Below are positions 10,929 to 58,799 of a DNA stretch of 64,000 nucleotides, piece by piece. Source of the DNA: an archaeon (GTDB taxonomy: Archaea > Nanobdellota > Nanobdellia > Woesearchaeales > GW2011-AR15); the NCBI GenBank assembly GCA_043801855.1, contig JAZDLQ010000103.1, forward strand, positions 1,834 to 65,833, written 5' to 3'. Every line of letters starts with the position of its first letter. The first letter of the stretch is position 1. The notes under the pieces are model-generated. The model worked only from the letters and a program-made list of their open reading frames with translations, was not told the DNA's origin and ran no database searches. The translations under genes were made by a program, and so were the position numbers.

Positions 10929-11107
10929 AAATTGCACAGCCAGAAATCCAGATACTTAAGTATACTGGATGAATGGCTGCGCTTGGCAGTGCAATTTGCT
11001 GAAGTCCGAGCAGCGAATCCCCACCATTAATTGAAAATAAATATATTTTCAATTTGCTAAAAATGCGTCCATTTTTATCATATGGTAGGGGAGAGCCTCG
11101 GACTTCA
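10929..11107. other. Two adjacent long imperfect hairpins (candidate structured ncRNA or MITE-like element; strand undetermined)
   Basis: Hairpin 1: AAATTGCAC (10929-10937) pairs with GTGCAATTT (10989-10997), with inner stems AGCCA/TGGCT and TCCAGATAC/GTATACTGGA. Hairpin 2: TGAAGTCCGAG (11000-11010) pairs perfectly with CTCGGACTTCA (11097-11107). Inside it, CCCCACCAT pairs with ATGGTAGGGG, and there are two further small hairpins (TTGAAAAT/ATTTTCAA and AAAAATG/CATTTTT). The stems are GC-richer than the surroundings. Confidence 0.5.
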
Positions 11108-11474
11108 TTCAAATTTTTAAAAATGAACTTCTTGACTCATTTTTTTATTAATTAGTCACTTATTATTAGTAAAAAAAGTTTATATAACTCAACCTAATAA
11201 TTTTTATCTTATTTAATTAAAGTGGGAGGAGTTAAACATAGAATTTCATAGTATAGACAGTTTTTCGGTAATTAGCAGTATAGAGAAGATTGCAAAAACC
11301 CTGCAAACTTCTAATATAGCAAATGGACAAATTCCTTTGCTATTAGGAAAAGCGCATTTTTCGCGCTTTGAGTATAGAGCACTTTGCATCGTGTTTTTAA
11401 CGTCGAGAGAGCCTTTGCTCTTTTTAAAAATCGCACTTTTTGCAAAGTTCTCTATAAATTTCTTTAATAATAAT

Positions 11475-11485
11475 TTTTATATATC
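11475..11485 (+). promoter_or_regulatory. TATA-like element (TTTTTATATAT) upstream of the giant surface-protein gene
   Basis: Centred about 33 nt upstream of the ATG at 11513 and 12 nt upstream of the GTG at 11492. A second TATA-like CTATAAAT lies at 11452-11459. Confidence 0.4.
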
Positions 11486-11491
11486 TAAGAG

Positions 11492-12016
11492 GTGTGGAGC
11501 TTGAAAAAAACAATGTTTGTAGCTTTAGCTGCCTTTCTTTTGGCAGCATTATTTGCAAATGCAGAAGTATTAATTGTTAGCCTAAATAAGGGAGAGTATT
11601 CGGCCGGTGAATCTGTCCTCATATCAGGCTATACTTTTGATGACAATCTGAATGCAAAATCAGACAGCACTGTTACAATTTATCTTAATGATACTCTACT
11701 CTATGAAGGCCTTCCCGCATCAGATGGATTATTCAACCACACCATAATAAACATCTCTGTCGGAAGCTACAAAGTTACTGCAAACACAAGTGACTCTACG
11801 CAGGTTTTAACATTTGAAGCTACTGCAGCAGCTCTTACTCCATCTTACATAATTATTGCATCTTCATTAAATGTCCCGTACACAAATCCGCTAGTCAATT
11901 TTACAGTCCAAAAATATTTAGGAGACACGCTGACAAGCGACTCTTACACATACAATATATATTACTCAAACGGAACACTATTTAATTCATCAACCTATAC
12001 AAGCGGCTCTTCTTAA
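11492..12016 (+). CDS. Signal-peptide-bearing N-terminal segment of the giant surface protein; ends at an in-frame TAA
   Basis: Signal peptide MWSLKKTMFVALAAFLLAALFANA (alternative ATG start at 11513), followed by Ig-like beta-sandwich repeats. It is in the same frame as 12365-21652, and the frame stays open from 12017 onward. Confidence 0.8.
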   Translation: MWSLKKTMFVALAAFLLAALFANAEVLIVSLNKGEYSAGESVLISGYTFDDNLNAKSDSTVTIYLNDTLLYEGLPASDGLFNHTIINISVGSYKVTANTSDSTQVLTFEATAAALTPSYIIIASSLNVPYTNPLVNFTVQKYLGDTLTSDSYTYNIYYSNGTLFNSSTYTSGSS

Positions 12017-12364
12017 ATAATCAGGCTTCCGGGTGAAGCAGGATTCTACAATATAATAATAGACGGCAAAAAAGCATTTAGCGTTAATGTTGCAAAGTTT
12101 GACCTGAAATATAAAATCACAGATAAGACAGGAACCCAGAAAACGACATTCAAGCCAAATGGCGTTGCTTATTTTGAAGTAGAGGGCTATTCAAATGGCC
12201 AAAAAATAACAAACGCAACTGTTACTGCTAAAGTTACTGACCCAACTGGAACAATAAATACTGTTACATTTGTTGATACAAGCGGCTTATATAAGGGAAA
12301 CACAAATGTCACCCAGACAACCCCAATCCAACTTAGGGCAGGAGATTATGTAGCTGAATTTATT

Positions 12365-15300
12365 ATGAAAGATTCTTCAAATAATGAGCAGACTATCAAA
12401 GGATATTTTACAGTTATGGGGCTTGATGTATCAGTTAAGCTAATTGAAAAGAGGCCTTATCCGACAGGTGATATCGCAGAGTTTGATATCACAGTTAAAA
12501 ATCTTGAGACAGGAGCGCTATTAACACATAATAGTACATTATATTTAGTTGAAATAGAAAGCAATGGTAAATTATATGATACAACTACAGCAGTAATTGC
12601 TGAGAATTCCGATACAACTAAAACATCTCTTTTGACGTTTCTGGTTCCGAATTTTGCCGACGGAAATTATTTCCTGAAAATAAAAGCAACAAATGGAGGG
12701 AAAGTAGGAAAAGGAACTGAATTTATTGAAATATCCAATACTGAAATCTATGCAGAATTATCAGATAATTTTGGAAATTACAGAAACCAGTTTAAGCCGG
12801 GAGAACTTGCAAAAATAACTGTTAGCTCTAATGTTAACCTGTCTTATGTCAACCTGAGTGTTTACGATAAAGGCAATAATATCAAGTCAACTGCCAATGC
12901 AACAGCAAGCGCTGCAGGTGCGTCAATAACATTTAATGTTCCTGTAGCCCAGGACGGCTATTATGCGGAATTGACAATTATTACGCAGTCAGGCTCATCC
13001 GTTAAACGCCAGGTATGGTTTACCGTGCAGAACTATTTTTCATTTTTAGACGTAAAAGATTTGAATAATAATCACAGGTTTGTTAACCAGCAGGGCTCTG
13101 AATTTTTAGCAGAGATAAATGTTGTTGACATAACATCAGGCCAGAATGTTGATGTATCAAGCTTCACATTTAAGATTAACAAAATAGTGAATGAAGAAAC
13201 AAACGCAGAGTATACTAATTTTAAAGCAACAAGAAATACAACTTATACTGACGCGTCAACAGGCAGAGTAACTTATAATGTAATTCCTCCATCTCTTCCA
13301 AACGGAATATATAGAATTGAATATACTATTGTGAATACTCTTGGCGAATCTTTCTCAGGCAATGGCTGGTTTGGAATTTCAGCTTTTGGCGTGACAGTCA
13401 GTACATATGATTCGACAGGACAGCAGAAAAGAGGATTTGCTGCCGGAAGCAATATTAATGTTTCAGTAACACTATCTAATTCGTATAACGGGACAGCAAC
13501 AATAGTCAGGGAATTTTTTTCTGATGTTACATTCAATGTTTTAAATGGAAACGGCTCGGCTGTTCTCAATGCATCATCAGGCCAGATTCCAAGCCAATCA
13601 GGATTTTATGGCTTTGGAGTTGAAGTAGAAAATACAGATGGCAACAAGGGATATGGTGAAGGTTTTTTTGAAATAAAAAGCTTAAATTTTAAAAGCATAA
13701 CAGCAAGAAGCAATGCAAAGTTTGCATCAAATGCATTAATTATTGCTGATATTGTGATGGAAAAAGCAGGGGAGCTTGTTAATGAGACCAACGCCACATT
13801 ATCACGGCTTGTTCGGCAAAGAGACGGTGCAGCATTATCTGCTTCTTCACTTTCATCATTATCTGATTCATTTGGCAGATCAACCATAAACATTACTGCA
13901 AGCAGCCTTGAAAAGGGATTTTATTTTGCAGAATTAAAGGCAGTTAAGGGAACTGATACAACTTACGGAGGATTCGGTTTTGAAGTAGTTGAAGATAAAG
14001 TATCCATAACATTAAGCGACACAGACAGGATTTTTTCCCAGACTGAAAACATTGAAATTAGTGTTCTTGTGACATATCAGAATGACACGCCTAAAAATAA
14101 TGTAACAGTCAATTTAACATCGTTTTTAAATTTTAATACTTGGTCAACAGTTGCAGTAAATAAGCAGGCAACAACCTCAACTAGCGGCGTTGCAACATTC
14201 AGCGTATCCGCTGCAAACTATAACCCGGCCAGGTATGCGCCTGTTATTAATATTCCAGGCATGGCAAATGCAATTGTAGGGTTTGGAAACAGTGAATTTG
14301 AGGTTAAGCCTTTTTCAACAACAATTGTTTTTTCAGAAGGAAAAGATTATTTTGACACAGATGATACTATCACGATTAACGTTAGTGTCACAGGATCAGT
14401 CACTGTTAGTGCTGTTGTTACTGATAAAGCAGGAAATGCTGTTAATGTTGATTATTCTTATTCCAACAATGTATTAACACTTAATAATGACCTTGATCCA
14501 GGAGAGTATTTTGTTGAAGTGACAATTACCCAGAGCACAAGTACAGTATCAAAGACGCTTTGGTTCCAGGTTATTTCACCGGAAATACATCTTCAGCCTT
14601 TGCCAAATCCAAATTACCAGGAAACAGATACAATTAATTTTGATTACACTGTTTTTACAATAAGCTCTAACGGCTGGGCTCTTGCTAATGCAACAGTTAA
14701 TATTACAGCAATAAAGAACTTATGGCAGGGAACAGAGGAAGAAGTCGGTGTCTTATTTAATGCAACAGAAGAAGACTCTTATGCATTTGATTTAACCTCT
14801 TACGCACTTGAAAAAGGAGATTACCTTCTTGTATTTGAAGTAATAGGAAATCCAAATTTTGAAAACACGCTTTACTTTAGGATATCAAAAGACGTTTCAT
14901 TTAGTGCAAGTTCTAATGTGGCTTCAAATAATGTCTCAATTAATGTGACAACAACAGGATTTGGTTCTCCGCAGATTTTACTTGAAGGATACACTAATTT
15001 TGAATCATTCACTTATACATTAGTTGGAGGAACTCCTGTCTCAGCAGCAAATGCTCTGCTTAGCCTAAATGGGCTTTCAAACGGCTTTTATCAGGCAAAT
15101 ATTAAAGTCACTGATGGAGCAGAAAACTATTATTTCAATACATTCTTTGATGTAAGGGTAAAAGATGTAACAATTGATGCTCCGGGAGAAGCCTTTGTTG
15201 GCGAGCCAGTACAGTTTAACATAACAGCAACTAGTGCCGGAGTATTCTGGGTGATTGACCCGTTCACTCAAAACATTGTACAGAAAACACAAGTCAGTCC

Positions 15301-18300
15301 GGGTTACACAGAACTCAATGTAACATTCAATTATCCAACCCATTATATATATAGCAGCGGCGTTGATAAGTGGGAGGCATTCAGGAACGGAGAAGATATT
15401 AATATAAGAAACGTTGGATTTGATGTAGTATGGCCTTATATGAATAACAGGTATATTCTGACAGGTGCGACAAATTTCACGTTTAATGTAAGCTCTGGAA
15501 AATATAATACACCAATGACATTAAAGCTGAAAAACCATTTTTCTGGAAATACAAAGACTTTATCAACATTAATGACAGCCCCAAATTCTGATTGGAAAGA
15601 ATTTTCATACGATCTTGATGATGCGGTAGAGGGTCTTGGCTTGTCAAACGGCCCTCATGATGTTGAATTAACTCTGGAAGATGGCTCAGCACAGCCTCCG
15701 AAGATGTATTTCTTTATTGACATTTTCCCAGATCAATACAATATGTGGGCATGGACAGACAGATGGGAATACAGGACAGGAGAGCAGATGACAATTAATA
15801 TTGACATATTTGATATTTTATCTGGCTGGCAAAAACAGTCTCCGGATAATGTTTCACTTGAGTCATTATATGATTCATTCAGGCAGCCGGTGTCAGGAAG
15901 CCTTGGTTGGACTCAAGGGAATAATTTTGCAAATCTAACAATTGGAAGCAGCTGGGTAACAGGTAATTACCATGCTGAGCTAAAGCTTAATAAGAGCGAT
16001 GTGCTTAGGACAGTTCCATTTGACTTTTATGTCAGGGGAAATGACAACTTAAAGCTATTCTGGCAGCAAAACAAATGGGATTATTCATCAACAGAAACTT
16101 ATCAGATATCAATTGATGCAAGAGACAAAGGCCTTGCTGCTGTTGGAGTTCCCGTTACATTGGTAGGATTTGAAATGCGGCCCGAAAACTGGAATGACAC
16201 TCCGACTCCAGTAGAAATTAACGGGGCATATAATTTCTCAAACAACAATGTTACTGACGCAACCGGAAGAATAACATTTAGGTTAAATATTTCACAGGCG
16301 CAGCTTGGCAGTGGAGGATATAGCGCAAGAGTAAATGTTGGCGGCCAGCTTGTATGGCTTGACTTTAATGTGAGAACTTATCAGGTAGATGCATATCCTG
16401 AAGAGTGGGAATATGGCATTACAGATACAATTGAGATTAATGCAAGGGCAAGAAACATTGATACTTTTGCGCCAATTAATGAAAACGGAAACGTAACAAT
16501 AATTAAAATAAGAAGGCATGAGCAGGGAAACTGGATGCCGCAGGATATTCCACTTGAAAGCTTTGGAATTTATGATGCATCAACTGATGTTTTTAATGGT
16601 GAAGCATTGATAGAAATGTCTGCAAATCAGACTGCCCTTGCTCTTGAAAAAGCTTATGATTTTGAATTAGAGCTGCTGATGAATCTGACAGGGAGTGGAG
16701 TATCCAAAGGATATGTATGGTTCAAGCTTTCAAACTCAGATAAGCCGGCAGCAACAATTGTTGATAACACTGGATCTGAACCGGATGCGTATTTTGCAGG
16801 CCAGAATTATACACTGAGAGTAACTGGTGCAACTTCTGCAACACTAAGAAATATGTGGGGCCCGCAGTCTATGAATTATAACAAGGCGCTTGTTAATAAT
16901 AGCGGAACTTTGCAGACAGATTTCTATAGTCCGCAGTCTCCTGGAATGTATACCCTTGAAATAGAGATAAGGCGATCAGAAGGATTTCCTGAATTCATCT
17001 ATCAGGATTTCCAAATTGGCGGAGACACACAGTTAGACCTGTGGCTTGAGGAGTCATCAGTTGTTCCTGAAGTCAATTTTACAGTAGGATTATTTTTGAT
17101 GGGAAAAGGAACTGATCCATTTTGTAATCCTGAATATGGCTGTAATCGACCAATGGATAACTGGTTTGGTCCGCTGGGAAATAAGACTGTAAGGCTTACT
17201 GCAATAAAAGACCTCGATACATTCACCTTGATTAACAAGACCAATCTGAATATTGCCGCAACAACTAGTGACTTTCCTGACTGGATGCTCGTTGCAAACA
17301 CTCCAGGTGAGGGATGCGGCGGGTTTGATACAGAGCAGAATTGCACGGATGAAGGCTGCAGCTGGATTGTTGATGGGTATTGCGAGCCTAAATTCGATGG
17401 ATGTATTTACGGCGACACAAATACCTGCCAGAATGTTCACGGTTCTGATTGTGTGTGGAATATTGATCACTGCCAGCCTAAGATGTCTGGAAACTGCCAA
17501 TACGGAGATAGCGGCACATGTGAATCCGTTGATCATGCAGCAGATTGCCAATGGATTGAGCAAGACGGTCACTGTGAAGGAGAATATGATACGAGCCAGG
17601 ATAATCAGGGGCAATTCATTTCACAAGGTGAAGAGCCTGGAAGAGCTACTTTCAACCTTCATCCAACCATTCTTAACCTAACAGCAGGCAAGAGTTATGA
17701 TATAATCTTTAGCTATATTAGCGATGATGGTGAAGAAACTGAAGGAAAACTTGCAATACAGGTTGAAAAATTCCATGTCGCAATTTCAAGAGGCGAAGAA
17801 AATCTTGCAGCAAATACTTTACAATATGTATGGATGAAAACAGCTAATCTATACGGCGCTCCAATTGCTAACTGCACAATATCTTTCAGCGCATTATATA
17901 GCGCAAAAGACTATAAGCTTGTGAAGACTTTAAGCATCAGCGGCAACTCAAGCACTGAAGGCAACTATATCTTTACGTACACGACACCAAGCCTTCCCGG
18001 AGAGTATCTTGTTGAGGGTCAAGTGACATGCACTGTTGACAGTGTGCCGGTGACGCAGAAGATTGCATATTTTGTAGATGTCAGCGCAAAGAATTTAGAA
18101 GTTGACATGAAGACAAGGTTCAAGGAAAATGAAAACATCAAAATACTTATCACAACAAAGGATAGGATGGGCAATGCAATTCCTCAAAGGCTTGATATTA
18201 ACTTGTATCATGACAGGGAAGACTATCCTGCGCCAATATATTCACTTGGCGGTTCAGATTGCACAGTTCTTGATGCAAACCAGGCATGGGATTTAAGGAC

Positions 18301-21300
18301 AGAACAAGTTAGCGAAACAAATAACAGGATGGAAATTTCTACTGATGAGACAGGAAAACTAGAGCTAGAGCTTTGCGCCATGCCAAATGGCGCTTATATG
18401 ATAGACATCTTTCCATTGCTTGATTTTGCAATGATGGATGAAGGTCCAAAAACAGAAGGCAAGGGAGATAACTTTGGCTTTTTTAGCGATTTCATGGTAG
18501 GTCCAGGAGAAGTAATAATTACAACAAATTTAACATATATGGTAGGTGATACTGTTGTGCTGAATATATCTGCAACTGATGATAACAACAACCCACTTAA
18601 TGGAACACTTGTTGCATCAGAATCAATCCAGGAAATATATAGCCAGAATGGAGAAACAGATATACTCGTGCATCAGAATGATTCCATTGACCTATCATTG
18701 ACGGGCGGAAGCATCCTATTACAATATGTTATCCCGCCAAACGGCACTTATGAAGAGAATGATTCTGTTGTTATGGATATCAGGGCTGCTCCTGTTGACG
18801 GAAGCATTATGCTTGAAGATAACCTAGGGGAAAAATACTCTTTTAACAACCTGCTCTATACAATTAAAAACAGCAGAATTTCAGAGTTAAGTGTTTCACA
18901 AAGTGTTAAGGCAAACAAGCTGATTAATGTATCTGTGAGAACTGAAAACACCAACCGCTACAAAGTGGAATTCGGCATATTTTTCTTAAAAGACAACACT
19001 AATAAGGAAAAGTCCTGGAAAGTTCAGGGCGGCGTGTTCCTTGCAAATGTATCCGGCCAGAATTACAGCGAAGGTGTTTTTCAGGTACTTAGCCCAAAAG
19101 AGCCAGGGACATATTATCTTGCAATTCCAATCTATGCTCTTGGAACACCAATGGATGACATTGCAACAGCCACTGAGCTTTTGATAGCGCCTGTTGAAGT
19201 TACTCTGGATCTTGCAAATGTGTCTGGAATTTTAACTGAGCTTGACGGGTCAACAGCAATCCAATCAGCGCTTGTAAGGATAGGTAAAAAGGAAGTATAC
19301 ACTAATTCAACAGGCGGATTTGAAATGCTTGTTCCAAAAGGCAAAGCAAGTATAGAAATTGAGCGAAAGGTTAACGGCGAATTAAAGCAGACAATGAAGA
19401 CTCTTGAATATGATTTTGTGAATGACACTGTAGTTGATGTTAATTTCTATGGCTTTTTGCTAAATGGCACGCTTCAGCAGACCATATTTAATATCACCAG
19501 CCCAAGTACAGACTTATCAACTATGAAGATAAGGATAAATGTATCTGTAAATAACACTGGCTACCAGAACTTCACAAACTATACTATCAAGGCAGTTGCA
19601 AGCAGCGGAGAAGAGATAAAAATTGAAAGTGTTGAGCCTATTGAAAAAGAGTATGTGTTTTTCAGGAACCTCTATGCAGGCTTTGAGACAGGCAGCTATG
19701 AACTTAATGTTAAATTCAAGGCAGAATACTGGAACAGCTCTTCTTATGTTTTGGTTAATAATATAGAACTGAATTCAACAGTAGGAGCAGTCCTTGAAAA
19801 ATCTTATGAAGTTGAGACATATGCTGTAGCAGGTGATTCTCTGGACAATGATGGAGACTGCTCTGGAAACAGAACCAATGCTCCGGATTGCACACCCCAA
19901 CAAGGAACAATTGGTATTTGTATTGATGAGGAAGAGAATAACAATAAAGATGATGACTGTGACGGAAAGATTGATGAAGATCTTGAAGGCATGAATTATT
20001 TTGAATGGTGCGGAAATGGTTTTTGCGCAGGAAGCGAAGTGTATAATTGCTTTGAAGATTGTGCAACAGGCTATTGCGGAGATAATGTCTGCTCTTCTAC
20101 AGAAACTTATATGTGCGTTGAAGACTGCGGCGGAACAAACTGCACGCCGTTAAACACATGTGCAGGCGATGGTTCAGCATATTTCTGCAACAACTGGGGA
20201 ACCCTTGAGCCTGCAAACTGGTGCCAGTCACAGTGTAATTCTGATAATTGCTGGGCTTGTTCTACTGAAGAGTGCGTAAGCAAGGGATGCACTCTTGGCA
20301 GCGAAGGGCAGAATAGTTGGTGTTATAAATTAGAAGTATGCGGTGATAATTCATGTCCTGCATGCACTTCATTTAGCGCCTGCGATGCAACTTCATCATG
20401 CCAATGGGAAGTTGATTCATACAGCCCAAATGGCGGATGGTGTGAAAGGCCATGGAACTGTGACAATGAATGCGCTGCATGCATGGATCAGTCAAGTTGT
20501 GATGCATCTACTGCAACAATGGGAGAGAGTGGATGTGCTTGGAAAGTTGAAGGTTTGGGTTCATGGTGCCAGTGGAATATGTCTTACGCACCACCTTCCG
20601 GAGGAATGGGCGGTATCATTGAAAACCTATGGGTAGACTCAAATTTCTCAAAAGGAGATTATCAGGCTCTTGAGGATTGGCAATGCTATTCTGACTATTG
20701 CGGCGTAGAAAACCAGGCAGGAAACTACTATATTATGCTATCAATGGGAACAACAAATGTTGATATTAAAGTAAACGGAGCATATTTTGCGACAATAAAT
20801 AATAGCAACGGCAACTGGGGAAAGAAATGGACTAATACAACATATGCATTTTCTAACGGTACATATTTAATCGAAATCTTTGATAAAATCGGGCCTGATT
20901 ACGTTGCATGGAACGTCACATTTGGCGACCAGACTGGAATTGGAAACATCATAATAAATACTATGGGAAACAGCAGCAGTAACAAAATAGCTGATGCATA
21001 CAATGAATCTGGAAAAGAAGTTTGTGATGGAGAGGGTAACTGCTATCTTGTAACTGGAGTAGGAATATCTGGAAATTATTATGTTACTGTTGAACTGTAT
21101 CAGGGAGATAGTATCAATGTAACAGTTAAAGACAGCAACAACAACCAGAATATCTATGCATTGAATAGTATCCCAAGACATGGTTATTACAGTACTCCTG
21201 CAATAAGTTTCCAGAACAACAAACAATACATAATTTACGTTCAGGATAATGTAAATACTGGTGTTGAGCAGTTCTGGGCTGTTGGTGTTGGTTCATGGGT

Positions 21301-21652
21301 TAGTTCGCCATTCAGATATAACTTAATGCCTATATCAGCAAGCCCAATGTGTGTTGAGAACGGCTCTGTTGCAACAGTTGAATATGCAATTACTAATACA
21401 GCATATAAGGATTCATTGTTTAATGTGACTTATGCATTTAATACAACAACCGGGATTAATACTTACGATCAGCTTGTCACATCTGTTGATTATGGGATGC
21501 CTCCAAATTTCTTGGCGACTCAGTTTTACAATCTGAATATTTGGTCTGCTGGTTCCTCATATAAATTAAATGTGACTGTTAGAAACAGCGAAAATCCAAG
21601 CGTAAACCAGAATTATACATGGATTATTAATGCAGAAGCATCTTGTCCTTAG
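12365..21652 (+). CDS. Giant secreted/surface protein (at least 3095 aa): tandem Ig-like/CARDB-like repeats, carboxypeptidase-regulatory-like domain, Cys-rich modules; no membrane anchor
   Basis: One uninterrupted ORF. There are dozens of repeats of about 90-110 aa ending in G-x-Y...V patterns. Cys-rich blocks lie at about 17306-17595 and 19830-20620. It has no signal peptide of its own; the frame is open upstream to 12017 and contiguous with 11492-12016. No C-terminal TM segment. Confidence 0.85.
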   Translation: MKDSSNNEQTIKGYFTVMGLDVSVKLIEKRPYPTGDIAEFDITVKNLETGALLTHNSTLYLVEIESNGKLYDTTTAVIAENSDTTKTSLLTFLVPNFADGNYFLKIKATNGGKVGKGTEFIEISNTEIYAELSDNFGNYRNQFKPGELAKITVSSNVNLSYVNLSVYDKGNNIKSTANATASAAGASITFNVPVAQDGYYAELTIITQSGSSVKRQVWFTVQNYFSFLDVKDLNNNHRFVNQQGSEFLAEINVVDITSGQNVDVSSFTFKINKIVNEETNAEYTNFKATRNTTYTDASTGRVTYNVIPPSLPNGIYRIEYTIVNTLGESFSGNGWFGISAFGVTVSTYDSTGQQKRGFAAGSNINVSVTLSNSYNGTATIVREFFSDVTFNVLNGNGSAVLNASSGQIPSQSGFYGFGVEVENTDGNKGYGEGFFEIKSLNFKSITARSNAKFASNALIIADIVMEKAGELVNETNATLSRLVRQRDGAALSASSLSSLSDSFGRSTINITASSLEKGFYFAELKAVKGTDTTYGGFGFEVVEDKVSITLSDTDRIFSQTENIEISVLVTYQNDTPKNNVTVNLTSFLNFNTWSTVAVNKQATTSTSGVATFSVSAANYNPARYAPVINIPGMANAIVGFGNSEFEVKPFSTTIVFSEGKDYFDTDDTITINVSVTGSVTVSAVVTDKAGNAVNVDYSYSNNVLTLNNDLDPGEYFVEVTITQSTSTVSKTLWFQVISPEIHLQPLPNPNYQETDTINFDYTVFTISSNGWALANATVNITAIKNLWQGTEEEVGVLFNATEEDSYAFDLTSYALEKGDYLLVFEVIGNPNFENTLYFRISKDVSFSASSNVASNNVSINVTTTGFGSPQILLEGYTNFESFTYTLVGGTPVSAANALLSLNGLSNGFYQANIKVTDGAENYYFNTFFDVRVKDVTIDAPGEAFVGEPVQFNITATSAGVFWVIDPFTQNIVQKTQVSPGYTELNVTFNYPTHYIYSSGVDKWEAFRNGEDINIRNVGFDVVWPYMNNRYILTGATNFTFNVSSGKYNTPMTLKLKNHFSGNTKTLSTLMTAPNSDWKEFSYDLDDAVEGLGLSNGPHDVELTLEDGSAQPPKMYFFIDIFPDQYNMWAWTDRWEYRTGEQMTINIDIFDILSGWQKQSPDNVSLESLYDSFRQPVSGSLGWTQGNNFANLTIGSSWVTGNYHAELKLNKSDVLRTVPFDFYVRGNDNLKLFWQQNKWDYSSTETYQISIDARDKGLAAVGVPVTLVGFEMRPENWNDTPTPVEINGAYNFSNNNVTDATGRITFRLNISQAQLGSGGYSARVNVGGQLVWLDFNVRTYQVDAYPEEWEYGITDTIEINARARNIDTFAPINENGNVTIIKIRRHEQGNWMPQDIPLESFGIYDASTDVFNGEALIEMSANQTALALEKAYDFELELLMNLTGSGVSKGYVWFKLSNSDKPAATIVDNTGSEPDAYFAGQNYTLRVTGATSATLRNMWGPQSMNYNKALVNNSGTLQTDFYSPQSPGMYTLEIEIRRSEGFPEFIYQDFQIGGDTQLDLWLEESSVVPEVNFTVGLFLMGKGTDPFCNPEYGCNRPMDNWFGPLGNKTVRLTAIKDLDTFTLINKTNLNIAATTSDFPDWMLVANTPGEGCGGFDTEQNCTDEGCSWIVDGYCEPKFDGCIYGDTNTCQNVHGSDCVWNIDHCQPKMSGNCQYGDSGTCESVDHAADCQWIEQDGHCEGEYDTSQDNQGQFISQGEEPGRATFNLHPTILNLTAGKSYDIIFSYISDDGEETEGKLAIQVEKFHVAISRGEENLAANTLQYVWMKTANLYGAPIANCTISFSALYSAKDYKLVKTLSISGNSSTEGNYIFTYTTPSLPGEYLVEGQVTCTVDSVPVTQKIAYFVDVSAKNLEVDMKTRFKENENIKILITTKDRMGNAIPQRLDINLYHDREDYPAPIYSLGGSDCTVLDANQAWDLRTEQVSETNNRMEISTDETGKLELELCAMPNGAYMIDIFPLLDFAMMDEGPKTEGKGDNFGFFSDFMVGPGEVIITTNLTYMVGDTVVLNISATDDNNNPLNGTLVASESIQEIYSQNGETDILVHQNDSIDLSLTGGSILLQYVIPPNGTYEENDSVVMDIRAAPVDGSIMLEDNLGEKYSFNNLLYTIKNSRISELSVSQSVKANKLINVSVRTENTNRYKVEFGIFFLKDNTNKEKSWKVQGGVFLANVSGQNYSEGVFQVLSPKEPGTYYLAIPIYALGTPMDDIATATELLIAPVEVTLDLANVSGILTELDGSTAIQSALVRIGKKEVYTNSTGGFEMLVPKGKASIEIERKVNGELKQTMKTLEYDFVNDTVVDVNFYGFLLNGTLQQTIFNITSPSTDLSTMKIRINVSVNNTGYQNFTNYTIKAVASSGEEIKIESVEPIEKEYVFFRNLYAGFETGSYELNVKFKAEYWNSSSYVLVNNIELNSTVGAVLEKSYEVETYAVAGDSLDNDGDCSGNRTNAPDCTPQQGTIGICIDEEENNNKDDDCDGKIDEDLEGMNYFEWCGNGFCAGSEVYNCFEDCATGYCGDNVCSSTETYMCVEDCGGTNCTPLNTCAGDGSAYFCNNWGTLEPANWCQSQCNSDNCWACSTEECVSKGCTLGSEGQNSWCYKLEVCGDNSCPACTSFSACDATSSCQWEVDSYSPNGGWCERPWNCDNECAACMDQSSCDASTATMGESGCAWKVEGLGSWCQWNMSYAPPSGGMGGIIENLWVDSNFSKGDYQALEDWQCYSDYCGVENQAGNYYIMLSMGTTNVDIKVNGAYFATINNSNGNWGKKWTNTTYAFSNGTYLIEIFDKIGPDYVAWNVTFGDQTGIGNIIINTMGNSSSNKIADAYNESGKEVCDGEGNCYLVTGVGISGNYYVTVELYQGDSINVTVKDSNNNQNIYALNSIPRHGYYSTPAISFQNNKQYIIYVQDNVNTGVEQFWAVGVGSWVSSPFRYNLMPISASPMCVENGSVATVEYAITNTAYKDSLFNVTYAFNTTTGINTYDQLVTSVDYGMPPNFLATQFYNLNIWSAGSSYKLNVTVRNSENPSVNQNYTWIINAEASCP

Positions 21653-21663
21653 AGGTGAATGAA

Positions 21664-22842
21664 ATGAAAAAAATAGTAATAGCCGTTTTTTACTTGTTTG
21701 TTTTAGTTTTTAGCGCATCTGCTGCAACTCTTTCATGCCAGCAGATAAGTGAAACAAGCCAAAGTATTCCTCAATTTTCGAGTAGCACTATTGAGATAAG
21801 ATGCAGCGCGTCAGGAGGAACAGTAAGTAATATTCAAATAACTCCAAATAGCAATCCTTCAACAGGATTAACTATTACAAGCAGCCAGACTATCAGCAGT
21901 TCGATATCTGATCAGTCAAGCAGTACTGCAAAGTGGAGTGCAACCGGCGATTCGCCAAACACTTACACTGTTTCTTATACTGTATCAAGTGATGGCACAA
22001 ACTCATGGAGCGGCGCCTCCACTACAACAGTTAGTGTTCCTTCACCTGCCCAGCTTAGCGTTGAATATGTTCTGCCTCCAAGTATCTTTGCACCGGCAGT
22101 TGAAACGCTTGATTTCCAGATAACAAACATTGGAGGAACAAGTGCCACAAACGTGAAGATGAAATTAAATAATGGCTCTCTTTACACATATCCAACCTCA
22201 ATTGAAGCAGGAGCATCAGCCTCATACAGCTGGACAAATTCAACTGGATTTAATGTATCTGGTGAATACACAACTTATGTTTATATTGCAGATACATTGC
22301 ATGACAGCGTAACAGCAACAGTTTTGACAGGAGAGGAAGGCATAAATGCAACAAGCGGCTGGAGCCTTATAAGTTATCCAAAGCAGCCTGATAATACAAG
22401 CGTTGTCCATGCAGTTGAAGACATATCTTCTATCTTTACTATAATTTATAGATATGATGGTGGCGTCACATGGAAATCTTATGACGGCCCTGGTGGCTCT
22501 CCTGACACATTAACAACAATATCCTCTGCAAAAGGTTATTGGCTTAAAACAACTCAGTCAACACAGCTGAATTTTACAGGAACAGAGGTATCAAGTATGC
22601 AGATAAATCTAACAAGCGGCTGGAATCTAATAGGATATCCGAAATCTACAACTACTAATTTAACAACTACAATGGCAGATATACTTAACAATGTAGATAC
22701 TATTTTCAGGTTTGATGGCGGTGTCACATGGAAATCTTATGACGGGCCTGGTGGTTCTCCCGACACATTGACAACACTTACTCCTGGAAAAGGTTATTAT
22801 GTAAAAATGAATAATGCAGATACTTTATCAGTGATAAACTAA
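21664..22842 (+). CDS. Secreted CARDB-like protein with two C-terminal GWNLIGYP...PGKGYYVK repeats (cassette 1, gene A)
   Basis: I prefer the ATG at 21664 (MKKIVIAVFYLFVLVFSASA signal peptide), which is preceded by GAGGTGA 6 nt upstream; the track start 21643 is TTG. A CARDB-like segment (LDFQITNIGGTSATNVKMKL) is followed by two repeats of about 75 aa. Confidence 0.8.
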   Translation: MKKIVIAVFYLFVLVFSASAATLSCQQISETSQSIPQFSSSTIEIRCSASGGTVSNIQITPNSNPSTGLTITSSQTISSSISDQSSSTAKWSATGDSPNTYTVSYTVSSDGTNSWSGASTTTVSVPSPAQLSVEYVLPPSIFAPAVETLDFQITNIGGTSATNVKMKLNNGSLYTYPTSIEAGASASYSWTNSTGFNVSGEYTTYVYIADTLHDSVTATVLTGEEGINATSGWSLISYPKQPDNTSVVHAVEDISSIFTIIYRYDGGVTWKSYDGPGGSPDTLTTISSAKGYWLKTTQSTQLNFTGTEVSSMQINLTSGWNLIGYPKSTTTNLTTTMADILNNVDTIFRFDGGVTWKSYDGPGGSPDTLTTLTPGKGYYVKMNNADTLSVIN

Positions 22843-23275
22843 TAGGTATACAGTAAGAAAAAGGATATAAAAAAATGAAAATCAAATACGGCTTAAACTT
22901 TTTATCATATCTTGTAACAGGCTTATTGATAATGGTCCTTGTATCAGGGAACATTCAGACTTCATTATCAGATTCTGGAACAGGCGTCAGAGTCATAACC
23001 AGTGGATTGCTTGTGTCAAATGCAAATCTTACTGTTTTGATATTTACTGATCCTGATGGAGGAACTCCTGTATACAATGAGACTTTTGTAAATTCAATAA
23101 TGAATGGCAGCTGGGGGGTAATGCTTGGTGAAAACCCTTCTATTCCGCTTAATCTGGAATTCAACAGGAAATACTATAAGGATTATCTTATTAACGATGA
23201 AAATGTAAGTTTTACAAATCTGACTGGCTCAACTGTTGACAGGCAGTTTTTCTACAGTCCAATGGGTGAAATTGG
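22800..23275. repeat. Copy 1 of a near-identical segment of about 480 bp, spanning the gene A 3' end, the intergenic spacer and the gene B 5' end
   Basis: Aligns with 25503-25979 at a constant offset of 2703/2704 nt. It includes AAAATGAATAATGC...TCAGTGATAAACTAA...GTAAGAAAAAGGATATAAAAAAATGAAAATCAAATACGGCTTAAACTTTTTATCATATCTTGTAACAGGCTTATTGATAATG. Roughly nine in ten positions are identical by eye. Confidence 0.85.
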
Positions 23276-24776
23276 TCGTGATTCAAATTCTTCAGGACTT
23301 CATTCAACCGCAATAGGGTATGAGAATAACGCTTCAGGCGATTATTCAACAACTATAGGCAGGAAAAATCTGGCGAATGCAAGCTATGCTTTTGCAGCAG
23401 GTTATTTAAGCAACGCAACAGGTTATGCATCCTCTTCAATCGGCTGGACAGCACGAGCTTCAGGAATTGCATCATTTGCAGCAGGAATGAACACAGTTTC
23501 TTCTGGAATTGGAGCCTCTTCTTTAGGCTCAGATACTATTGCAAACGGGCATTATTCAGTAGCTTCAGGTTATTTTGCACAGGCTTCAGGTTTGGCATCA
23601 GAAGCATTCGGGTATTATGCAAAAGCAACAGGAGATTATTCAACAGCAGTTGGCAACTTTGCAAAATCACATGGGATTTACTCTTTTGCATGGGGTGGAT
23701 CCAATTGTTCAGTTGCCTCTTCTTCATGCAATAATACTGCACAGAATGCTTTTGCTGTCTATGGTAGCGTCTGTGTTTCAAATGCGACAAATGCGTGCCA
23801 GGCCAAAGGAGATGGAACAATTAGCGCAGAACAAATATGCTTAAATGGAAACTGCAGGACAATCTGGTCAACTCAGGGTGCAAATTATTCATGGGATACT
23901 GTTTCAAATGTGACTGCTGTTGCACTTGGAGTAAATACAAATGCAAGCGGGACTAATTCAACTGCACTGGGCATGGCAACAAATGCAGAAGGGCTTGGCT
24001 CATTTGCAGCAGGGAAAGAAACACATGCATCAGGGATTGCAGCAAGTGCAATGGGTTTAAACTGCACAGCATCAGGATGGTATTCAACAGCATTAGGTAA
24101 GGATTCAAATGCAGTAGCCTTTGGCTCTCTTGCGGCAGGGTATGGCGCAACTGCAGGCTCATACTGGGCTGACTATGCAGCTGTTGCCCTTGGAATGTAT
24201 ACACAGGCGCATGGTCCATATACAACTGCGATGGGCTATAATACAAGAGCAACAGGCAGTGCAGCAACAGTAATGGGAAAAGACACTCTTGCGACAGGGG
24301 ATTATTCAACTGCTGCAGGATACAATACGTATGCAATATGGGAATCCTCTTTTGCTATTGGTGAAGGCACAATTGCAGGCTCTTTGTATAAAGGAAAAGC
24401 ATTGGCAACAGGTTATTTCACTCATGCAGCAGGCAATATTTCAACAGCACTGGGCAGCTATGCTAAATCTTATGCTGATAATTCATTTGCATGGGGAGGA
24501 AGCAACTGCACAACAACAGCATCATTTTGTAATGCAACAAAGAAGAACACATTTGCAGTATTTGGGAATTTATGTGTGGCCAATGCAACAACAGTATGCC
24601 CTGAAATAGCCGATGGTACAGCATATTTTAGCGATGCAATGCAATTGCAGCCAAGACTAAATCCACCATCTGCATCTGCAATAGGCAAAATTTATTATGA
24701 TTCAGATCTTAATAAAATATGTTTCTATAATTCGTCATCATGGGTGTCAACTGATGGAGAGACAGTGTGCAGCTAA
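22875..24776 (+). CDS. Hep_Hag/YadA-head-like repeat protein, two tandem repeat-plus-cap modules (cassette 1, gene B)
   Basis: 633 aa. An N-terminal hydrophobic segment (MKIKYGLNFLSYLVTGLLIMVLVSG) and a conserved domain of about 110 aa are followed by 14-residue repeats of the type S-x-A-x-G-x-x-x-x-A-S-G-x-x. The module SFAWGGSNC...FAV(Y/F)G..CV.NAT..C occurs twice. C-terminal tail: GKIYYDSDLNKICFYNSSSWV. Confidence 0.8.
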   Translation: MKIKYGLNFLSYLVTGLLIMVLVSGNIQTSLSDSGTGVRVITSGLLVSNANLTVLIFTDPDGGTPVYNETFVNSIMNGSWGVMLGENPSIPLNLEFNRKYYKDYLINDENVSFTNLTGSTVDRQFFYSPMGEIGRDSNSSGLHSTAIGYENNASGDYSTTIGRKNLANASYAFAAGYLSNATGYASSSIGWTARASGIASFAAGMNTVSSGIGASSLGSDTIANGHYSVASGYFAQASGLASEAFGYYAKATGDYSTAVGNFAKSHGIYSFAWGGSNCSVASSSCNNTAQNAFAVYGSVCVSNATNACQAKGDGTISAEQICLNGNCRTIWSTQGANYSWDTVSNVTAVALGVNTNASGTNSTALGMATNAEGLGSFAAGKETHASGIAASAMGLNCTASGWYSTALGKDSNAVAFGSLAAGYGATAGSYWADYAAVALGMYTQAHGPYTTAMGYNTRATGSAATVMGKDTLATGDYSTAAGYNTYAIWESSFAIGEGTIAGSLYKGKALATGYFTHAAGNISTALGSYAKSYADNSFAWGGSNCTTTASFCNATKKNTFAVFGNLCVANATTVCPEIADGTAYFSDAMQLQPRLNPPSASAIGKIYYDSDLNKICFYNSSSWVSTDGETVCS

Positions 24777-24777
24777 A

Positions 24778-25545
24778 ATGAGACAGGTTATTCAAAATAC
24801 AGCATTGCAGATTTTCTTTTTATCATTGTTGCTAATTATTTCACTAAGGACTGTTTATGGAAATTCAACATCATATAGTATTGCTTTTTTAGAAAACGGC
24901 ATTGCAGATTCAGTGGCAGCAAGCAGTGCAAGCTATTCTGTTGAGTCTGCAAACAACAATGCTGAGCCTGCTGGAAACATGAGTTCAGCAAGCTTATATG
25001 GTGAATTTGGAAAAAAACAGCTCATTCAGGAATCAAATAAAATTATTGCTCTGGCTTCTGGCTGGAATTTAATCAGTTTTCCGCTGGGATTAAAAAATGA
25101 GTCCATTACAAATGCAGTATCTGGCATCTCACCATCATTAAGCATTGTTTACAGGTATGACGGCGGAGTTACCTGGAAAAGCTATGATGGCGCTGGCGGT
25201 TCTCCTGATACACTCTCATCAATTGCACCAGGAAAAGGTTATTGGGTTAAAATGACAAATTCAGAAGACCTTGAAAACATAGGTTATGTGCTGGATTATG
25301 TATCCATTCCGCTTTCATCTGGCTGGAATTTAATTGGCTATCCAAAATCAGCAAGCAGAAGCCTGACTGAAGTTTTTTCAAATATTACTGATAATCTGGC
25401 GATAGTTTATAGATATGACGGAGGAGTTATATGGAAAAGCTATGATGGTCCAGGAGGTTCACCAGATACATTGACAACCTTAAGCCCTGGAAAAGGATAT
25501 TATGTGAAAATGAATAATGCTGATACTTTATCAGTGATAAACTAA
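24778..25545 (+). CDS. Secreted protein with two GWNLI(S/G)(F/Y)P...PGKGY(W/Y)VKM repeats (cassette 2, gene A)
   Basis: The ATG at 24778 lies just after the stop of the preceding gene and gives MRQVIQNTALQIFFLSLLLIISLRTVYG. The track start 24697 would overlap the upstream gene by 80 nt. The C-terminal 16 residues (GKGYYVKMNNADTLSVIN) are identical to those of 21664-22842. Confidence 0.8.
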   Translation: MRQVIQNTALQIFFLSLLLIISLRTVYGNSTSYSIAFLENGIADSVAASSASYSVESANNNAEPAGNMSSASLYGEFGKKQLIQESNKIIALASGWNLISFPLGLKNESITNAVSGISPSLSIVYRYDGGVTWKSYDGAGGSPDTLSSIAPGKGYWVKMTNSEDLENIGYVLDYVSIPLSSGWNLIGYPKSASRSLTEVFSNITDNLAIVYRYDGGVIWKSYDGPGGSPDTLTTLSPGKGYYVKMNNADTLSVIN

Positions 25546-25979
25546 CAGGTTATACTGTAAGAAAAAGGATATAAAAAAATGAAAATCAAATACGGCTTAA
25601 ACTTTTTATCATATCTTGTAACAGGCTTATTGATAATGTCCTTTGTATCAGGGAACATTCAGACTTCATTATCAGATTCTGGAACAGGCGTCAGAACAAT
25701 AAGCAGCGGGCAACTTGTGTCGAATACAAACCTTACTGTTTTAATATTTACTAATCCTGATGGAGGAACTCCAGTATACAATGAAACTTTTGTAAATTCA
25801 ATAATGAATGGCAGCTGGGGGGTAATGCTTGGTGAAAACCCTTCTATCCCATTGTATCTTGAGTTCAATAGAAAATACTACAAGGATTATATGATAAATA
25901 ATGAGAACGTAAGCTTCACAAACCTTAGCGGCTCAACAGTTGACAGGCAATTCTTCTATTCTCCTATGGGTGAGTGGGG
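25503..25979. repeat. Copy 2 of the near-identical segment of about 480 bp (see 22800-23275)
   Basis: Direct comparison of the two stretches; the intergenic spacer differs by a single 1-nt indel and a few substitutions. Confidence 0.85.
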
Positions 25980-27186
25980 ACGCGGGTCCAATGCCAGTGG
26001 TATCTATTCAGCAGCATTAGGTTATTATACTGTCGCCAGCGGTGGCTATGCAACCGCTATGGGTAATAGAAGCACAGCTAGTGGAATTTATTCAACAGCG
26101 ATGGGTAGTAATACAACAGCTAGCGCAGCAAGTTCAACAGCCATGGGCGGCGATACTATAGCTAGCGGTAATGTTTCAACAGCAATGGGCGGTTCAACTA
26201 CAGCGAGCGGCTTTCTTTCAACAGCCATGGGTTATTTTACTACAGCCAGTGGTTATGCTTCAACTGCGATGGGAGTTAGGACTAATGCCACAGGATATTA
26301 TTCAGTTGCAATGGGTTATGGAAGCAGTTCTAGCAGCTATGCTTCAATTGCAGTAGGATTTCAATCTAATGCTACAGGATATTATTCAACAGCAATGGGT
26401 GAAGTTACTGCAGCTAGCGGTTATGCTTCAACCACAATGGGCAGTAACACCAGAGCTAGTATGCCGTTCTCAACTGCAATGGGCTCTAATACTATCGCTA
26501 GCGGTGATTATTCAACTGCCATGGGATATGGGACTGAGGCAAGTGGAGATTATTCAACTACAGTTGGCTATAGAACAAATGCAAGCGGTCAATATTCCAC
26601 TGCGTTGGGATATGAAACTATTGCATCCGGATATGATTCTATTGCATTGGGCTATAAAACATTAGCCAACGAAAGTTACTCTTTCGCAATGGGAGATAGA
26701 ACCAATGCCACAGGAATTAATTCCATTGCAATGGGCACGGTAACTCAAGCAAGCGGATCTTACTCTACTGCCATTGGTTTTATATCTACTGCCAGCGGAC
26801 AGTCATCAACAGCTATTGGCAGGTATGTACATGCAAAAGGAGGATATTCAATTGCAATGGGATACGGTGCAAATGCAACAGCTGACTATTCATTTGCATG
26901 GGGAGGTCCTTCGTGTTATAATTTACCATCGAACTGCAGCAATACCAGAGAGGGTCTATTTGCAGTATATGGAGGCATGTGCATCGCAGATGCTAAAACT
27001 GTATGTCCTGACATTGATGATGGAGTAGCATTTGTTGATAAGGCATTCTTGTTAAATCCAAGAGCTACACCGCCTACAGGTGCTATGGAAGGAATGATGT
27101 ATTTTGATTCAGACATCCACAAGCCCTGCTATTTTAATTCAACTAATTGGGTGAGGTTTGAAAATTCAAGCTTAGTCTGTAGTTAA
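25579..27186 (+). CDS. Hep_Hag/YadA-head-like repeat protein (cassette 2, gene B)
   Basis: 535 aa. The first ~130 residues are nearly identical to those of 22875-24776. About 30 consecutive 14-residue repeats follow (ASG.YSTAMG..T.), then SFAWGGPSC...FAVYGGMCIADAKTVC and the tail GMMYFDSDIHKPCYFNSTNWV. Confidence 0.85.
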   Translation: MKIKYGLNFLSYLVTGLLIMSFVSGNIQTSLSDSGTGVRTISSGQLVSNTNLTVLIFTNPDGGTPVYNETFVNSIMNGSWGVMLGENPSIPLYLEFNRKYYKDYMINNENVSFTNLSGSTVDRQFFYSPMGEWGRGSNASGIYSAALGYYTVASGGYATAMGNRSTASGIYSTAMGSNTTASAASSTAMGGDTIASGNVSTAMGGSTTASGFLSTAMGYFTTASGYASTAMGVRTNATGYYSVAMGYGSSSSSYASIAVGFQSNATGYYSTAMGEVTAASGYASTTMGSNTRASMPFSTAMGSNTIASGDYSTAMGYGTEASGDYSTTVGYRTNASGQYSTALGYETIASGYDSIALGYKTLANESYSFAMGDRTNATGINSIAMGTVTQASGSYSTAIGFISTASGQSSTAIGRYVHAKGGYSIAMGYGANATADYSFAWGGPSCYNLPSNCSNTREGLFAVYGGMCIADAKTVCPDIDDGVAFVDKAFLLNPRATPPTGAMEGMMYFDSDIHKPCYFNSTNWVRFENSSLVCS

Positions 27187-39282: not shown

Positions 39283-39465
39283 ATGCCTAAAAGCCGTAAA
39301 ATGAAAGTCTCAGTTATCGTCACAACGAAAAACGAGGAGAGAAATATTGCTAGATGCCTGGTGAGTGTTAAGAATCAGAGCTACCCAAATATAGAGATAA
39401 TTGTTGTAGACAATAACTCAAGTGATAAGACAAAGGAGATTGCGAAAAGAGGCAGTAATAAATGA
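39283..39465 (+). pseudogene. 5' fragment (about 55 codons) of a GT2 gene, paralogous to the start of 40038-40877
   Basis: KVSVIVTTKNEERNIARCLVSVKNQSYPNIEIIVVDNNSSDKTKEIAK matches LVSVIVTTKNEERNIGRCLESVKNQSYSNIEIIVVDNDSSDKTKKIAK. The fragment then ends in an ATGA overlap with the DUF1016 ORF. Confidence 0.8.
39307..39446. repeat. Imperfect direct repeat of about 140 bp, copy 1 (GT2 5' end)
   Basis: GTCTCAGTTATCGTCACAAC...GATTGCGAA aligns with 40053-40192 at a constant offset of 746 nt. Most positions are identical by eye. Confidence 0.85.
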
Positions 39466-58442: not shown

Positions 58443-58799
58443 CTATTTATTATCTGTTTTTGTAAAATTAGCGATAGCCATTACAATTGTACCTGCCAAA
58501 AGCAAAAGAAATACTGCAATGGATGCGTTTTCAGCAAGGCTATCTCTACCAACTATCATGGCAAAAGGAATAATCGGCAGTATTACAAACGAAATTTTAT
58601 AAAGTGAATCAGAACGAAGATAATTCAGTTCTGGTATGCTTGATACAAGAGACCTAATCGTCATTGCAAATTTTTTCATAATAATTTTTAAGATATTTAT
58701 AGTAATATTAAGTGGTTTTATCAATAATATATTGCAGACAGCATCAAAAGCTTCATCAACTAGTTTATTCTGGAAAAAATCGTCTTTTATTTCGTTCAC
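58443..58799 (-). CDS. Small hypothetical membrane protein
   Basis: 118 aa with two predicted TM helices at the C-terminal half. Co-directional with the GT-C genes, 12 nt upstream of 58430. Confidence 0.5.
   Translation of the reverse strand: MNEIKDDFFQNKLVDEAFDAVCNILLIKPLNITINILKIIMKKFAMTIRSLVSSIPELNYLRSDSLYKISFVILPIIPFAMIVGRDSLAENASIAVFLLLLAGTIVMAIANFTKTDNK

Follow-up and report, generated by a model that had tools for sequence, protein, structure and literature searches.

We show here that positions 11501-21652 (plus strand) of the window, the whole 64-kb stretch of DNA that was analysed, are, by comparison with homologues, one gene for a secreted protein of ~3,380 residues, which is predicted to consist of tandem beta-sandwich domains and is retained as one open reading frame (ORF) in Woesearchaeota/Nanoarchaeota (DPANN archaea). 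In the window copy, the frame of this giant gene is cut near its 5' end, at codon 172, by an in-frame TAA at 12014-12016. The change is a single nucleotide step, it is recent, and it is not accompanied by any bypass signal. We infer that the organism's DNA does contain the T at 12014, and we give a probability of about 0.5 to the reading of the stop as a real nonsense allele of very recent origin, carried by the assembled strain or by part of the sampled population, and not as a programmed feature. More generally, either an ordinary nonsense variant or an assembly error most likely lies behind the stop, rather than a new decoding mechanism.

The ORFs of the window agree with the sequence-only reading in that the TAA is the sole internal stop of the frame 11492-21652 and that the two ORFs on either side of it (11492-12016 and 12365-21652) share a frame, both starts being 2 mod 3. 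A start-codon scan likewise places the first in-frame ATG, GTG or TTG after the TAA at 12365, 117 codons on. Across the window, the giant gene is the only site at which two long same-frame stretches are split by one stop with no start codon close behind, and its interruption therefore exceeds what chance would give. Two of the earlier figures need minor correction. The frame is indeed long and otherwise open, but it counts 3,387 codons from 11492 or 3,384 from 11501, both stops included, instead of 3,386; and the product of the first ORF would indeed be a secreted stub, but one of 171 residues instead of the 174 counted from 11492, TTG 11501 being a more likely start than GTG 11492. We prefer TTG 11501 because the Shine-Dalgarno-like sequence AAGAGGTG (11488-11495, plus strand) lies 5 nt upstream of it, and because P0004, the source database's own gene call for the stub, has 171 residues and begins with MKKT. 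The TTG opens a predicted signal peptide, MKKTMFVALAAFLLAALFANA (11501-11563, plus strand), which is assigned from hydropathy, the N-termini of orthologues and P0004, and whose '(S/N)A-EVL' cleavage region is kept in orthologues. As written, the 5' fragment (11501-12016, plus strand) consists of 171 codons and the TAA, and encodes, after the signal peptide, domain 1 and roughly two thirds of domain 2. The rest of the gene (12017-21652, plus strand) comprises 3,211 codons and a TAG. A hydropathy scan supports the earlier claim that the only signal peptide sits 5' of the stop: residues 1-29 are the sole hydrophobic segment in the 3,383-residue read-through product, and the scan finds neither a second signal peptide nor a membrane anchor past the stop.

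The single-gene origin rests on the orthologues. Homologues were collected from genomes or metagenomes (14 loci) and from protein databases (17 proteins), sets that partly overlap, and in all of the resulting ~29 homologues from related Woesearchaeota/Nanoarchaeota a single continuous gene runs across the stop site. Every complete N-terminus among them bears a homologous signal peptide, and the full-length orthologues measure 3,284-4,020 aa. At the junction, which reads YTSGSS-X-IIRLPGEAGFYNIIIDGK (...TSGSS-x-IIRLPGEAG..., X being the TAA codon), the aligned codons are GAA, GAG, AAA and one AGG, so that close orthologues have E or K where the window has its stop; a single nucleotide change would turn GAA or AAA into the TAA. 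Among the 1.84 billion representatives of one library, no protein other than P0004, the window's own stub, ends at the junction. Another protein ending near it, P0015, was rejected as a second stub, being a fragment of another orthologue.

These comparisons refute a reading in which the two ORFs are genes in their own right, the first for a small secreted protein and the second for a giant with a start of its own. Gene callers do annotate the two parts separately, as P0004 attests. However, none of the homologues is split here, and the 116 in-frame codons that precede ATG 12365 (12017-12364, plus strand), which contain no start codon, align without gaps to the orthologues. The sequence upstream of ATG 12365 holds no Shine-Dalgarno sequence, the second part lacks a signal peptide, and the stop would cut a folded domain according to the structure model; we accordingly assign this reading a negligible probability.

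The structure model, made with AlphaFold2, has a mean pLDDT of 60, with means of 72-87 for 10-residue blocks across residues 131-190. It bears out the earlier suggestion that the stop falls inside a beta-sandwich repeat: residue 172 would lie between strands 160-167 and 181-187 of a second all-beta domain (residues 114-198; 11840-12094, plus strand), ahead of the last two strands of that domain. The predicted strands after the stop (181-187 and 191-198) match the hairpin that closes the following domain (281-290 and 296-305), again as had been proposed. Comparison of the orthologues places the stop in the most conserved part of the giant protein. Continuous homologues and the structure model thus both point to one gene, whose signal peptide is severed from the rest by a lone stop within a beta-sandwich domain.

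If the stop is real, a single substitution, most likely G to T in a GAA (Glu) codon or alternatively A to T in AAA, would have created the TAA at codon 172. Translation would end there and yield a 171-residue stub that bears the signal peptide and ends in an incomplete second domain, while the remaining 3,211 codons would be left with no start, ribosome-binding site or export signal, so that the allele as written would be null. The gene shows no sign of having been null for long. No further stop or frameshift and no relaxed constraint are seen across the 3,383 codons of the window copy. Where all other orthologues agree on one residue, the window copy has it in 93% of columns and departs from it in 6.9%, intact copies departing in 4.4-13.3%. 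Because no other lesion is present and the invariant columns are retained, the stop, if real, must be very recent.

The same integrity would be expected if the T at 12014 had been introduced during sequencing, assembly or consensus calling, or had been taken from a rare minority strain, the organism's gene being intact with GAA or AAA; the window gene is otherwise perfect, and we regard this account as possible but less likely than a real allele. Consensus substitution errors are, however, rare in contigs as long as the 70.9-kb contig from which the window derives, and no in-frame stop occurs elsewhere in the window. Searches for other copies of the site were negative: no sequencing run searched contained the stretch, an exact-pattern scan around the stop in genome and metagenome contig collections gave zero matches, as did exact-protein look-ups of the stub and of the 3,095-aa ORF, and the two public runs matched by a housekeeping stretch of the window shared only 6% of its words, with the stop site present in neither.

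Two orthologues from MAGs, L003 and L008, bear on the choice between a real allele and an error. Each carries one in-frame TAA, at sites that differ from that of the window and that align to Q/E/D and to a conserved Y, respectively, and each again lies one nucleotide step away. Three of 14 orthologues (the window copy, L003 and L008) therefore each have a single nonsense codon, independent of the others, and are otherwise free of lesions, and the independent single TAAs of L003 and L008 indicate that point lesions recur in this 10-kb target. (P0006, which at 3,484 aa matches the read-through length of L003, proved to be a different protein.) For L003, the site could be checked in public data: position 7028 is G (giving GAA) in the contigs of six of six covering runs, from five studies, and T in none. 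Over 10.7 kb, the six runs are otherwise identical to the MAG, or nearly so at ~98%, and they include a strain that diverges by ~2%. Since the covering contigs of all six runs read GAA, the L003 stop is private to the MAG; the runs listed contained no reads of L008. Thus, in at least one case an in-frame TAA of this kind is confined to a MAG assembly, where it may be an error, which by analogy favours an error in the window as well, although a real private allele fits the L003 data equally well.

The spectrum and the number of the stops are also compatible with error. All three in-frame TAAs can be explained by G>T / C>A changes, the class that oxidative damage typically produces while libraries are prepared, although two of the three changes are inferred and not observed. 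Of the G>T / C>A changes possible in the giant gene, 12.7% create stops, and 56% of those are TAA. In the 117 kb of giant gene surveyed, 0.3-1.7 nonsense differences are expected by chance, or 0.8-1.7 at 15-30 mismatches per 100 kb, the rate that we took as typical for MAGs. MAG errors alone could be nearly sufficient for the three stops seen.

The recurrence of lone, independent nonsense codons is, on the other hand, the pattern that recurrent short-lived nulls would leave, and a null allele might be held at appreciable frequency by selection, with 'on' and 'off' alleles in the population, if loss of the surface protein were transiently advantageous, for example in evading viruses or host defences that recognise the giant protein, or in a detached lifestyle. 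We consider this quite unlikely for the window stop. Stops in the giant gene number 3 per 36.8k effective codons versus 0 per 17.4k in neighbouring genes, an enrichment that is not significant against this small control (Fisher p = 0.56). The null allele of L003 is found in 0 of 6 runs and therefore does not stand at appreciable frequency there. The 'on/off state' of the surface protein that had been suggested earlier also finds no mechanism, because the stop site has no repeat tract or invertible switch: no repeat or inverted repeat lies at the stop, and there are no tandem repeats within 11000-22000. A 20-nt inverted repeat does occur 5' of the promoter (11279-11298 / 11437-11456), with no recombinase seen; it is unrelated to the stop. 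A broader form of the idea, in which recurrent single-base TAA nulls of a giant host-contact protein arise in natural DPANN populations and are either selected as an irreversible 'off' state (virus evasion, host detachment) or tolerated via leaky reading of UAA-A, is to our mind unlikely.

It is very unlikely that full-length protein is still made because ribosomes pass the TAA, whether through readthrough (programmed or leaky), recoding or a suppressor tRNA. Readthrough, which the sequence-only reading had offered as an explanation, would account for the 3,211 codons that stay open past the stop and keep their conserved residues, and perhaps for the fact that all three family stops are TAA followed by A, a pattern to which uniform single-step mutation would give, post hoc, a probability of ~0.003; readthrough is disfavoured by the normal use of TAA as a terminator, by the absence of the stop from orthologues and by the lack of downstream structure. 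Indeed, TAA ends 18 of the 38 large ORFs of the window, where it is the commonest terminator, and no convincing in-frame stop was found in any other gene of the window or of the orthologue loci examined. One candidate for a second interrupted gene, at a TAG at 58445 on the minus strand, proved to be an ordinary boundary at which a small membrane protein is followed by a GTG-started gene. The stop is not conserved, and a specific recoded amino acid was rejected, the residues aligned to the three TAA sites being different (E/K; Q/E/D; Y). RNA structure after the stop is absent in the window (z = -0.85) as it is at the two other TAA sites (z = -0.26 and +1.08). Frameshifting at TCT TCT TAA A was rejected as well, the +1 and -1 frames stopping at once and the homology staying in frame 0. 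The 64-kb window contains no tRNA genes, the L003 codon is plain GAA in other samples, and a literature search turned up no earlier case of archaeal UAA readthrough or of in-frame stops in Woesearchaeota. With TAA still a terminator, no other in-frame stop, and no structure, repeat tract or Shine-Dalgarno sequence, there is no support for recoding, readthrough, frameshifting or classical phase variation, and a recent nonsense allele continues to be our preferred reading.

The giant gene is followed by a 392-aa gene (21664-22842, plus strand), which has a signal peptide and a GAGGTG motif of its own, the motif that also precedes the giant gene. This partner gene follows the giant gene in L003, L004, L005 and L010, and the pair is located in a cell-surface and glycosylation island. 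Judged from gene order, the giant beta-sandwich protein and its predicted ~390-aa secreted partner are a conserved, uncharacterised pair in Woesearchaeota/Nanoarchaeota. The array past the stop in the giant protein is rich in N-x-S/T sequons, with 89 versus 53 +/- 6 expected, and the protein is probably glycosylated. Host contact is the supposed role of giant surface proteins in DPANN archaea, and the pair is a reasonable candidate for host attachment.

These results have practical consequences. In annotation, both ORFs should be merged as one gene with an internal stop and flagged as a pseudogene or as low-quality sequence, and the pair should not be listed as a small secreted protein and a signal-less giant. 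The case of L003 cautions that in-frame stops in giant genes of MAGs can be private to the assembly, and that a read check should come before biology is built on them. The giant gene and its partner are, in addition, now defined as a conserved secreted pair of these lineages that awaits characterisation.

Profile searches give no family match above threshold for the giant protein: every Pfam score is under its cut-off (PITM1-3, 26.2 bits versus 27.7; MG4, 18.9 bits versus 24.7; CopC, weak), and NCBIfam gave zero matches. Foldseek, run on the predicted N-terminal domains, returned C3/C4/C5, TEP1, InvD and SiiE with probability 1.0 and E = 1e-7 to 1e-10, with TM-scores of 0.2-0.3 that are low because inter-domain geometry is absent from the model. 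The protein is thus predicted to adopt a tandem beta-sandwich fold. Beta-sandwich domains are what it would have in common with the MG arrays of complement C3/C4/C5 and TEP1, with Salmonella SiiE and with Yersinia InvD, which are also very long and secreted. In contrast to these, it has no thioester, T1SS signal or outer-membrane anchor and comes from an archaeal host, and what it shares with them is a fold class and not membership of a family. Closer in lineage are the SPEARE proteins of Nanohaloarchaeota, which are likewise giant, extracellular DPANN proteins with Ig-like repeats and a presumed part in cell-cell contact, but which reach 5,000-9,400 aa compared with ~3,400 aa here (PMC10266531). 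Unlike SPEARE, the giant protein has no VirB4/TraG-like ATPase domain by Pfam and no membrane anchor by hydropathy, and no sequence relationship between the two was found.

As for the stop, known cases of programmed readthrough or stop reassignment also present an in-frame stop after which the frame stays open and conserved, whereas here the stop is not conserved, has no stimulatory context and uses a codon that serves as a normal terminator. Substitution errors and strain-consensus artefacts of MAGs resemble the present case in being isolated single-base discrepancies, as the TAA of L003 may be. The preferred reading has its counterpart in the nonsense alleles and pseudogenes of giant prokaryotic adhesins or surface proteins, in which, as here, a one-step lesion places a single stop in a long, conserved ORF for a secreted repeat protein whose orthologues are intact. 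The present case differs from them in that the lesion is alone and without decay, in an uncultured DPANN archaeon known from an assembly alone, and this solitary lesion in an otherwise undecayed gene means that the stop is either extremely recent or not real.

The reading frame that runs from position 11492 to the TAG at 21650-21652 of the window is interrupted once, by the TAA at 12014-12016, and the earliest in-frame ATG, GTG or TTG past this stop is the ATG at 12365, 117 codons on. Scanned for hydropathy, the read-through product shows one hydrophobic stretch only, at its N-terminus: the signal peptide MKKTMFVALAAFLLAALFANA. From these frame, start-codon and hydropathy checks, the sequence-only reading, which had described a surface-protein frame split by one TAA, with its only signal peptide ahead of the stop and no start codon before 12365, is therefore right in all essentials. 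The giant gene likely starts at the TTG at 11501, which has AAGAGGTG upstream at 5-nt spacing; the GAGGTG motif also precedes the gene downstream, and the source database's gene call for the stub ahead of the stop (P0004) is a 171-aa product beginning at the same TTG.

Homologues were collected by two word-indexed protein searches (yielding P0001, P0002 and P0003), two species-representative genome scans plus one metagenome scan (14 distinct loci), and an exhaustive HMMER search covering 1.84 billion representatives, with roughly 10 full-length close orthologues of 3,307-4,020 aa and another 6, more distant, of 2,526-3,235 aa. All homologues found are uninterrupted across the stop junction, as the proposed single-gene origin predicts, and each complete N-terminus begins with a homologous signal peptide whose end reads ...(S/N)A-EVL. 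Among the 1.84 billion representatives, only the window's own stub ends at the junction. The TAA lies in the 300-column stretch where conservation across the entire alignment is highest. That stub and giant ORF are two genuine genes is practically inconceivable and was rejected, since no homologue is split and the 116 start-less codons 3' of the TAA align to the orthologues without a gap. The two ORFs belong to a single conserved gene in which one base change, private to this assembly, makes a premature stop.

An AlphaFold2 model of residues 1-360 (mean pLDDT 60; 10-residue block means of 72-87 across 131-190) contains two all-beta domains, residues 22-108 and 114-198. Residue 172 falls between strands 160-167 and 181-187 of the second, in agreement with the earlier placement of the stop inside a beta-sandwich repeat, and the truncated product would thus be left without the last two strands of that domain.

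At the stop column, the 10 genome-locus orthologues carry GAA (4), GAG (3), AAA (2) and AGG (1), and a single substitution turns GAA or AAA into TAA. The window copy has no second stop or frameshift, and it departs from consensus at 6.9% of the columns invariant in all other orthologues, within the 4.4%-13.3% seen for intact copies at otherwise invariant columns. Purifying selection has therefore acted on the gene for essentially its whole history, and the T at 12014 is either very recent or not real. We consider the TAA a real, very recent null allele of the assembled strain, with a probability of about one half. A consensus error, in which the T would not be real, ranks second and is a substantial possibility.

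Two further orthologues from MAGs, at the loci L003 (7028-7030) and L008 (5172-5174), contain one in-frame TAA each, at different positions. The former aligns to Q/E/D (CAA, GAA and similar codons), the latter to a conserved Tyr (TAC/TAT), and each is one nucleotide step from the aligned sense codon. In all three cases the stop is TAA with A as the next base. If single-step mutation were uniform, TAA would make up 40-45% of nonsense changes, with A next in 33%, so that the agreement is mildly unusual (~0.003, post hoc); it would be accounted for if the changes were G>T / C>A transversions, 12.7% of which make stops in the giant gene, 56% of these being TAA. Contigs from four public sequencing runs of four studies (X3, X4, X5 and X10) carry a 10.7-kb gene identical to that of the L003 MAG, save that all four have T>G at 7028 and X4 and X5 additionally T>C at 9219; X15 and X17 carry a strain ~2% divergent, again with G at 7028. 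T at this site was thus seen in none of the six public runs covering it, all of which read GAA. The common allele of the L003 species is therefore intact, and the stop is private to the MAG, whether through assembly error or as a rare allele. In-frame TAAs in MAG copies of the giant gene are thereby directly shown to be neither a conserved nor a programmed feature.

Three nonsense stops in ~36.8k effective giant-gene codons versus none in 17.4k control codons is not a significant excess (Fisher p = 0.56). Random single-base changes in the gene are nonsense in 4.7% of cases; a rate of 15-30 mismatches per 100 kb would give 0.8-1.7 nonsense differences over the 117 kb surveyed. The three stops can be explained without invoking selection or recoding, and an 'off' allele maintained by selection is an unlikely account of the TAA at 12014. 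Bypass by readthrough, which had been offered as an option, did not hold up and is highly improbable: TAA is still the main terminator of large ORFs in the window (18, versus 13 TGA and 7 TAG), and folding of the 120 nt past the stop is no stronger than that of shuffled sequences (z = -0.85). Indeed, no bypass mechanism is supported. No convincing in-frame stop was found in any other gene across the window and ~170 kb of related loci, and +1 or -1 frameshifting at TCT TCT TAA A was rejected because the shifted frames reach stops immediately. There are no tandem repeats in 11000-22000, no repeat at 12014-12016, and no SD sequence ahead of the ATG at 12365, whose product would be without an export signal. 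The in-frame stop is an ordinary finding, and its practical value lies in a corrected annotation and in caution over in-frame stops in giant genes of MAGs.

Just upstream of the giant gene, TATAGAG-N4-TTGCA occurs three times exactly within 180 bp, at 11279-11294 (+), 11373-11388 (+) and 11441-11456 (-). With one mismatch allowed, the window contains 5 copies versus 0.78 expected, a count reached in 0 of 100 shuffles. Copies one and three make up an inverted repeat (20 nt, 90%) on either side of a 138-bp segment, and copy three overlaps a TATA-box-like CTCTATAAA. None of the orthologous loci contains the motif, and no recombinase was seen near the copies; possible readings of the motif are an operator or promoter element and an inverton-like structure.

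One species has an orthologue in which unrelated sequence takes over after the N-terminal ~800 residues (L001 5068-5078, L013 12346-15481, and L009). In L013 the sequence beyond this point is the C-terminus of a DsbA-like thioredoxin; L001 shows a deletion of 3.1 kb or a chimeric join that fuses the N-terminus to a P-type ATPase C-terminus, which explains the odd tail of P0001, and the L009 contig ends at this point, 12393. The giant gene thus seems to contain an assembly breakpoint or chimera here.

The MAGs that contain relatives of the giant gene bear the labels Woesearchaeota or Nanoarchaeota, and one orthologue has a TFIIB gene as its neighbour; the organism is therefore a DPANN archaeon. 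The window is a cell-surface island, comprising the giant gene, its conserved secreted 392-aa partner, two YadA-head-repeat proteins and a 1,683-aa Ig-domain protein, together with a long glycosylation cluster (GT2 and GT4 glycosyltransferases, B12-radical-SAM enzymes, asparagine synthase, a flippase and two GT-C proteins). N-x-S/T sequons number 89 in the giant protein, versus 53 +/- 6 in shuffled sequences, an enrichment that fits an extracellular archaeal glycoprotein. The protein (11501-21649 (+)) has neither a membrane anchor nor a recognisable C-terminal sorting signal. A candidate anchor is the partner (21664-22842 (+)), whose gene also comes after the giant gene in four other genomes and whose C-terminus consists of two copies of a ~70-residue repeat (…GWNLIGYP…FRFDGGVTWKSYDGPGGSPDTLTT…GKGYY/WVK). 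The ORF at 24697-25545 (+) aligns with 27% identity to the L005 orthologue of the partner, and neither of these window proteins has a Pfam or NCBIfam match.

The YadA-head domain is known from bacterial trimeric autotransporter adhesins; here, two paralogous proteins with many such repeats (22875-24776 and 25579-27186 (+)) are encoded in an archaeal genome, and the sequences upstream of their starts are near-identical, the final 24 of the 25 nt compared being identical (…CTGTAAGAAAAAGGATATAAAAAA ATG). Within the glycosylation cluster, a 189-aa ORF (39462-40031 (+)) ending 6 nt before a GT2 gene has only the N-terminal domain of DUF1016; members of this family normally carry a nuclease-like domain at the C-terminus, and the ORF is probably what remains of a truncated gene. 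For a 183-aa ORF (49230-49781 (+)), which shares 28 nt with the methyltransferase-GT4 fusion gene ahead of it, the match is confined to the C-terminal portion of a methyltransferase domain (profile positions 54-95 of 95); the ORF may be a gene fragment.

For the giant protein itself, NCBIfam gave zero matches, and the Pfam matches to MG4, PITM1-3 and CopC were all sub-threshold. By Foldseek, its model matches tandem beta-sandwich arrays of known systems, namely the MG domains of complement C3/C4/C5 and TEP1, and the arrays of InvD and SiiE.
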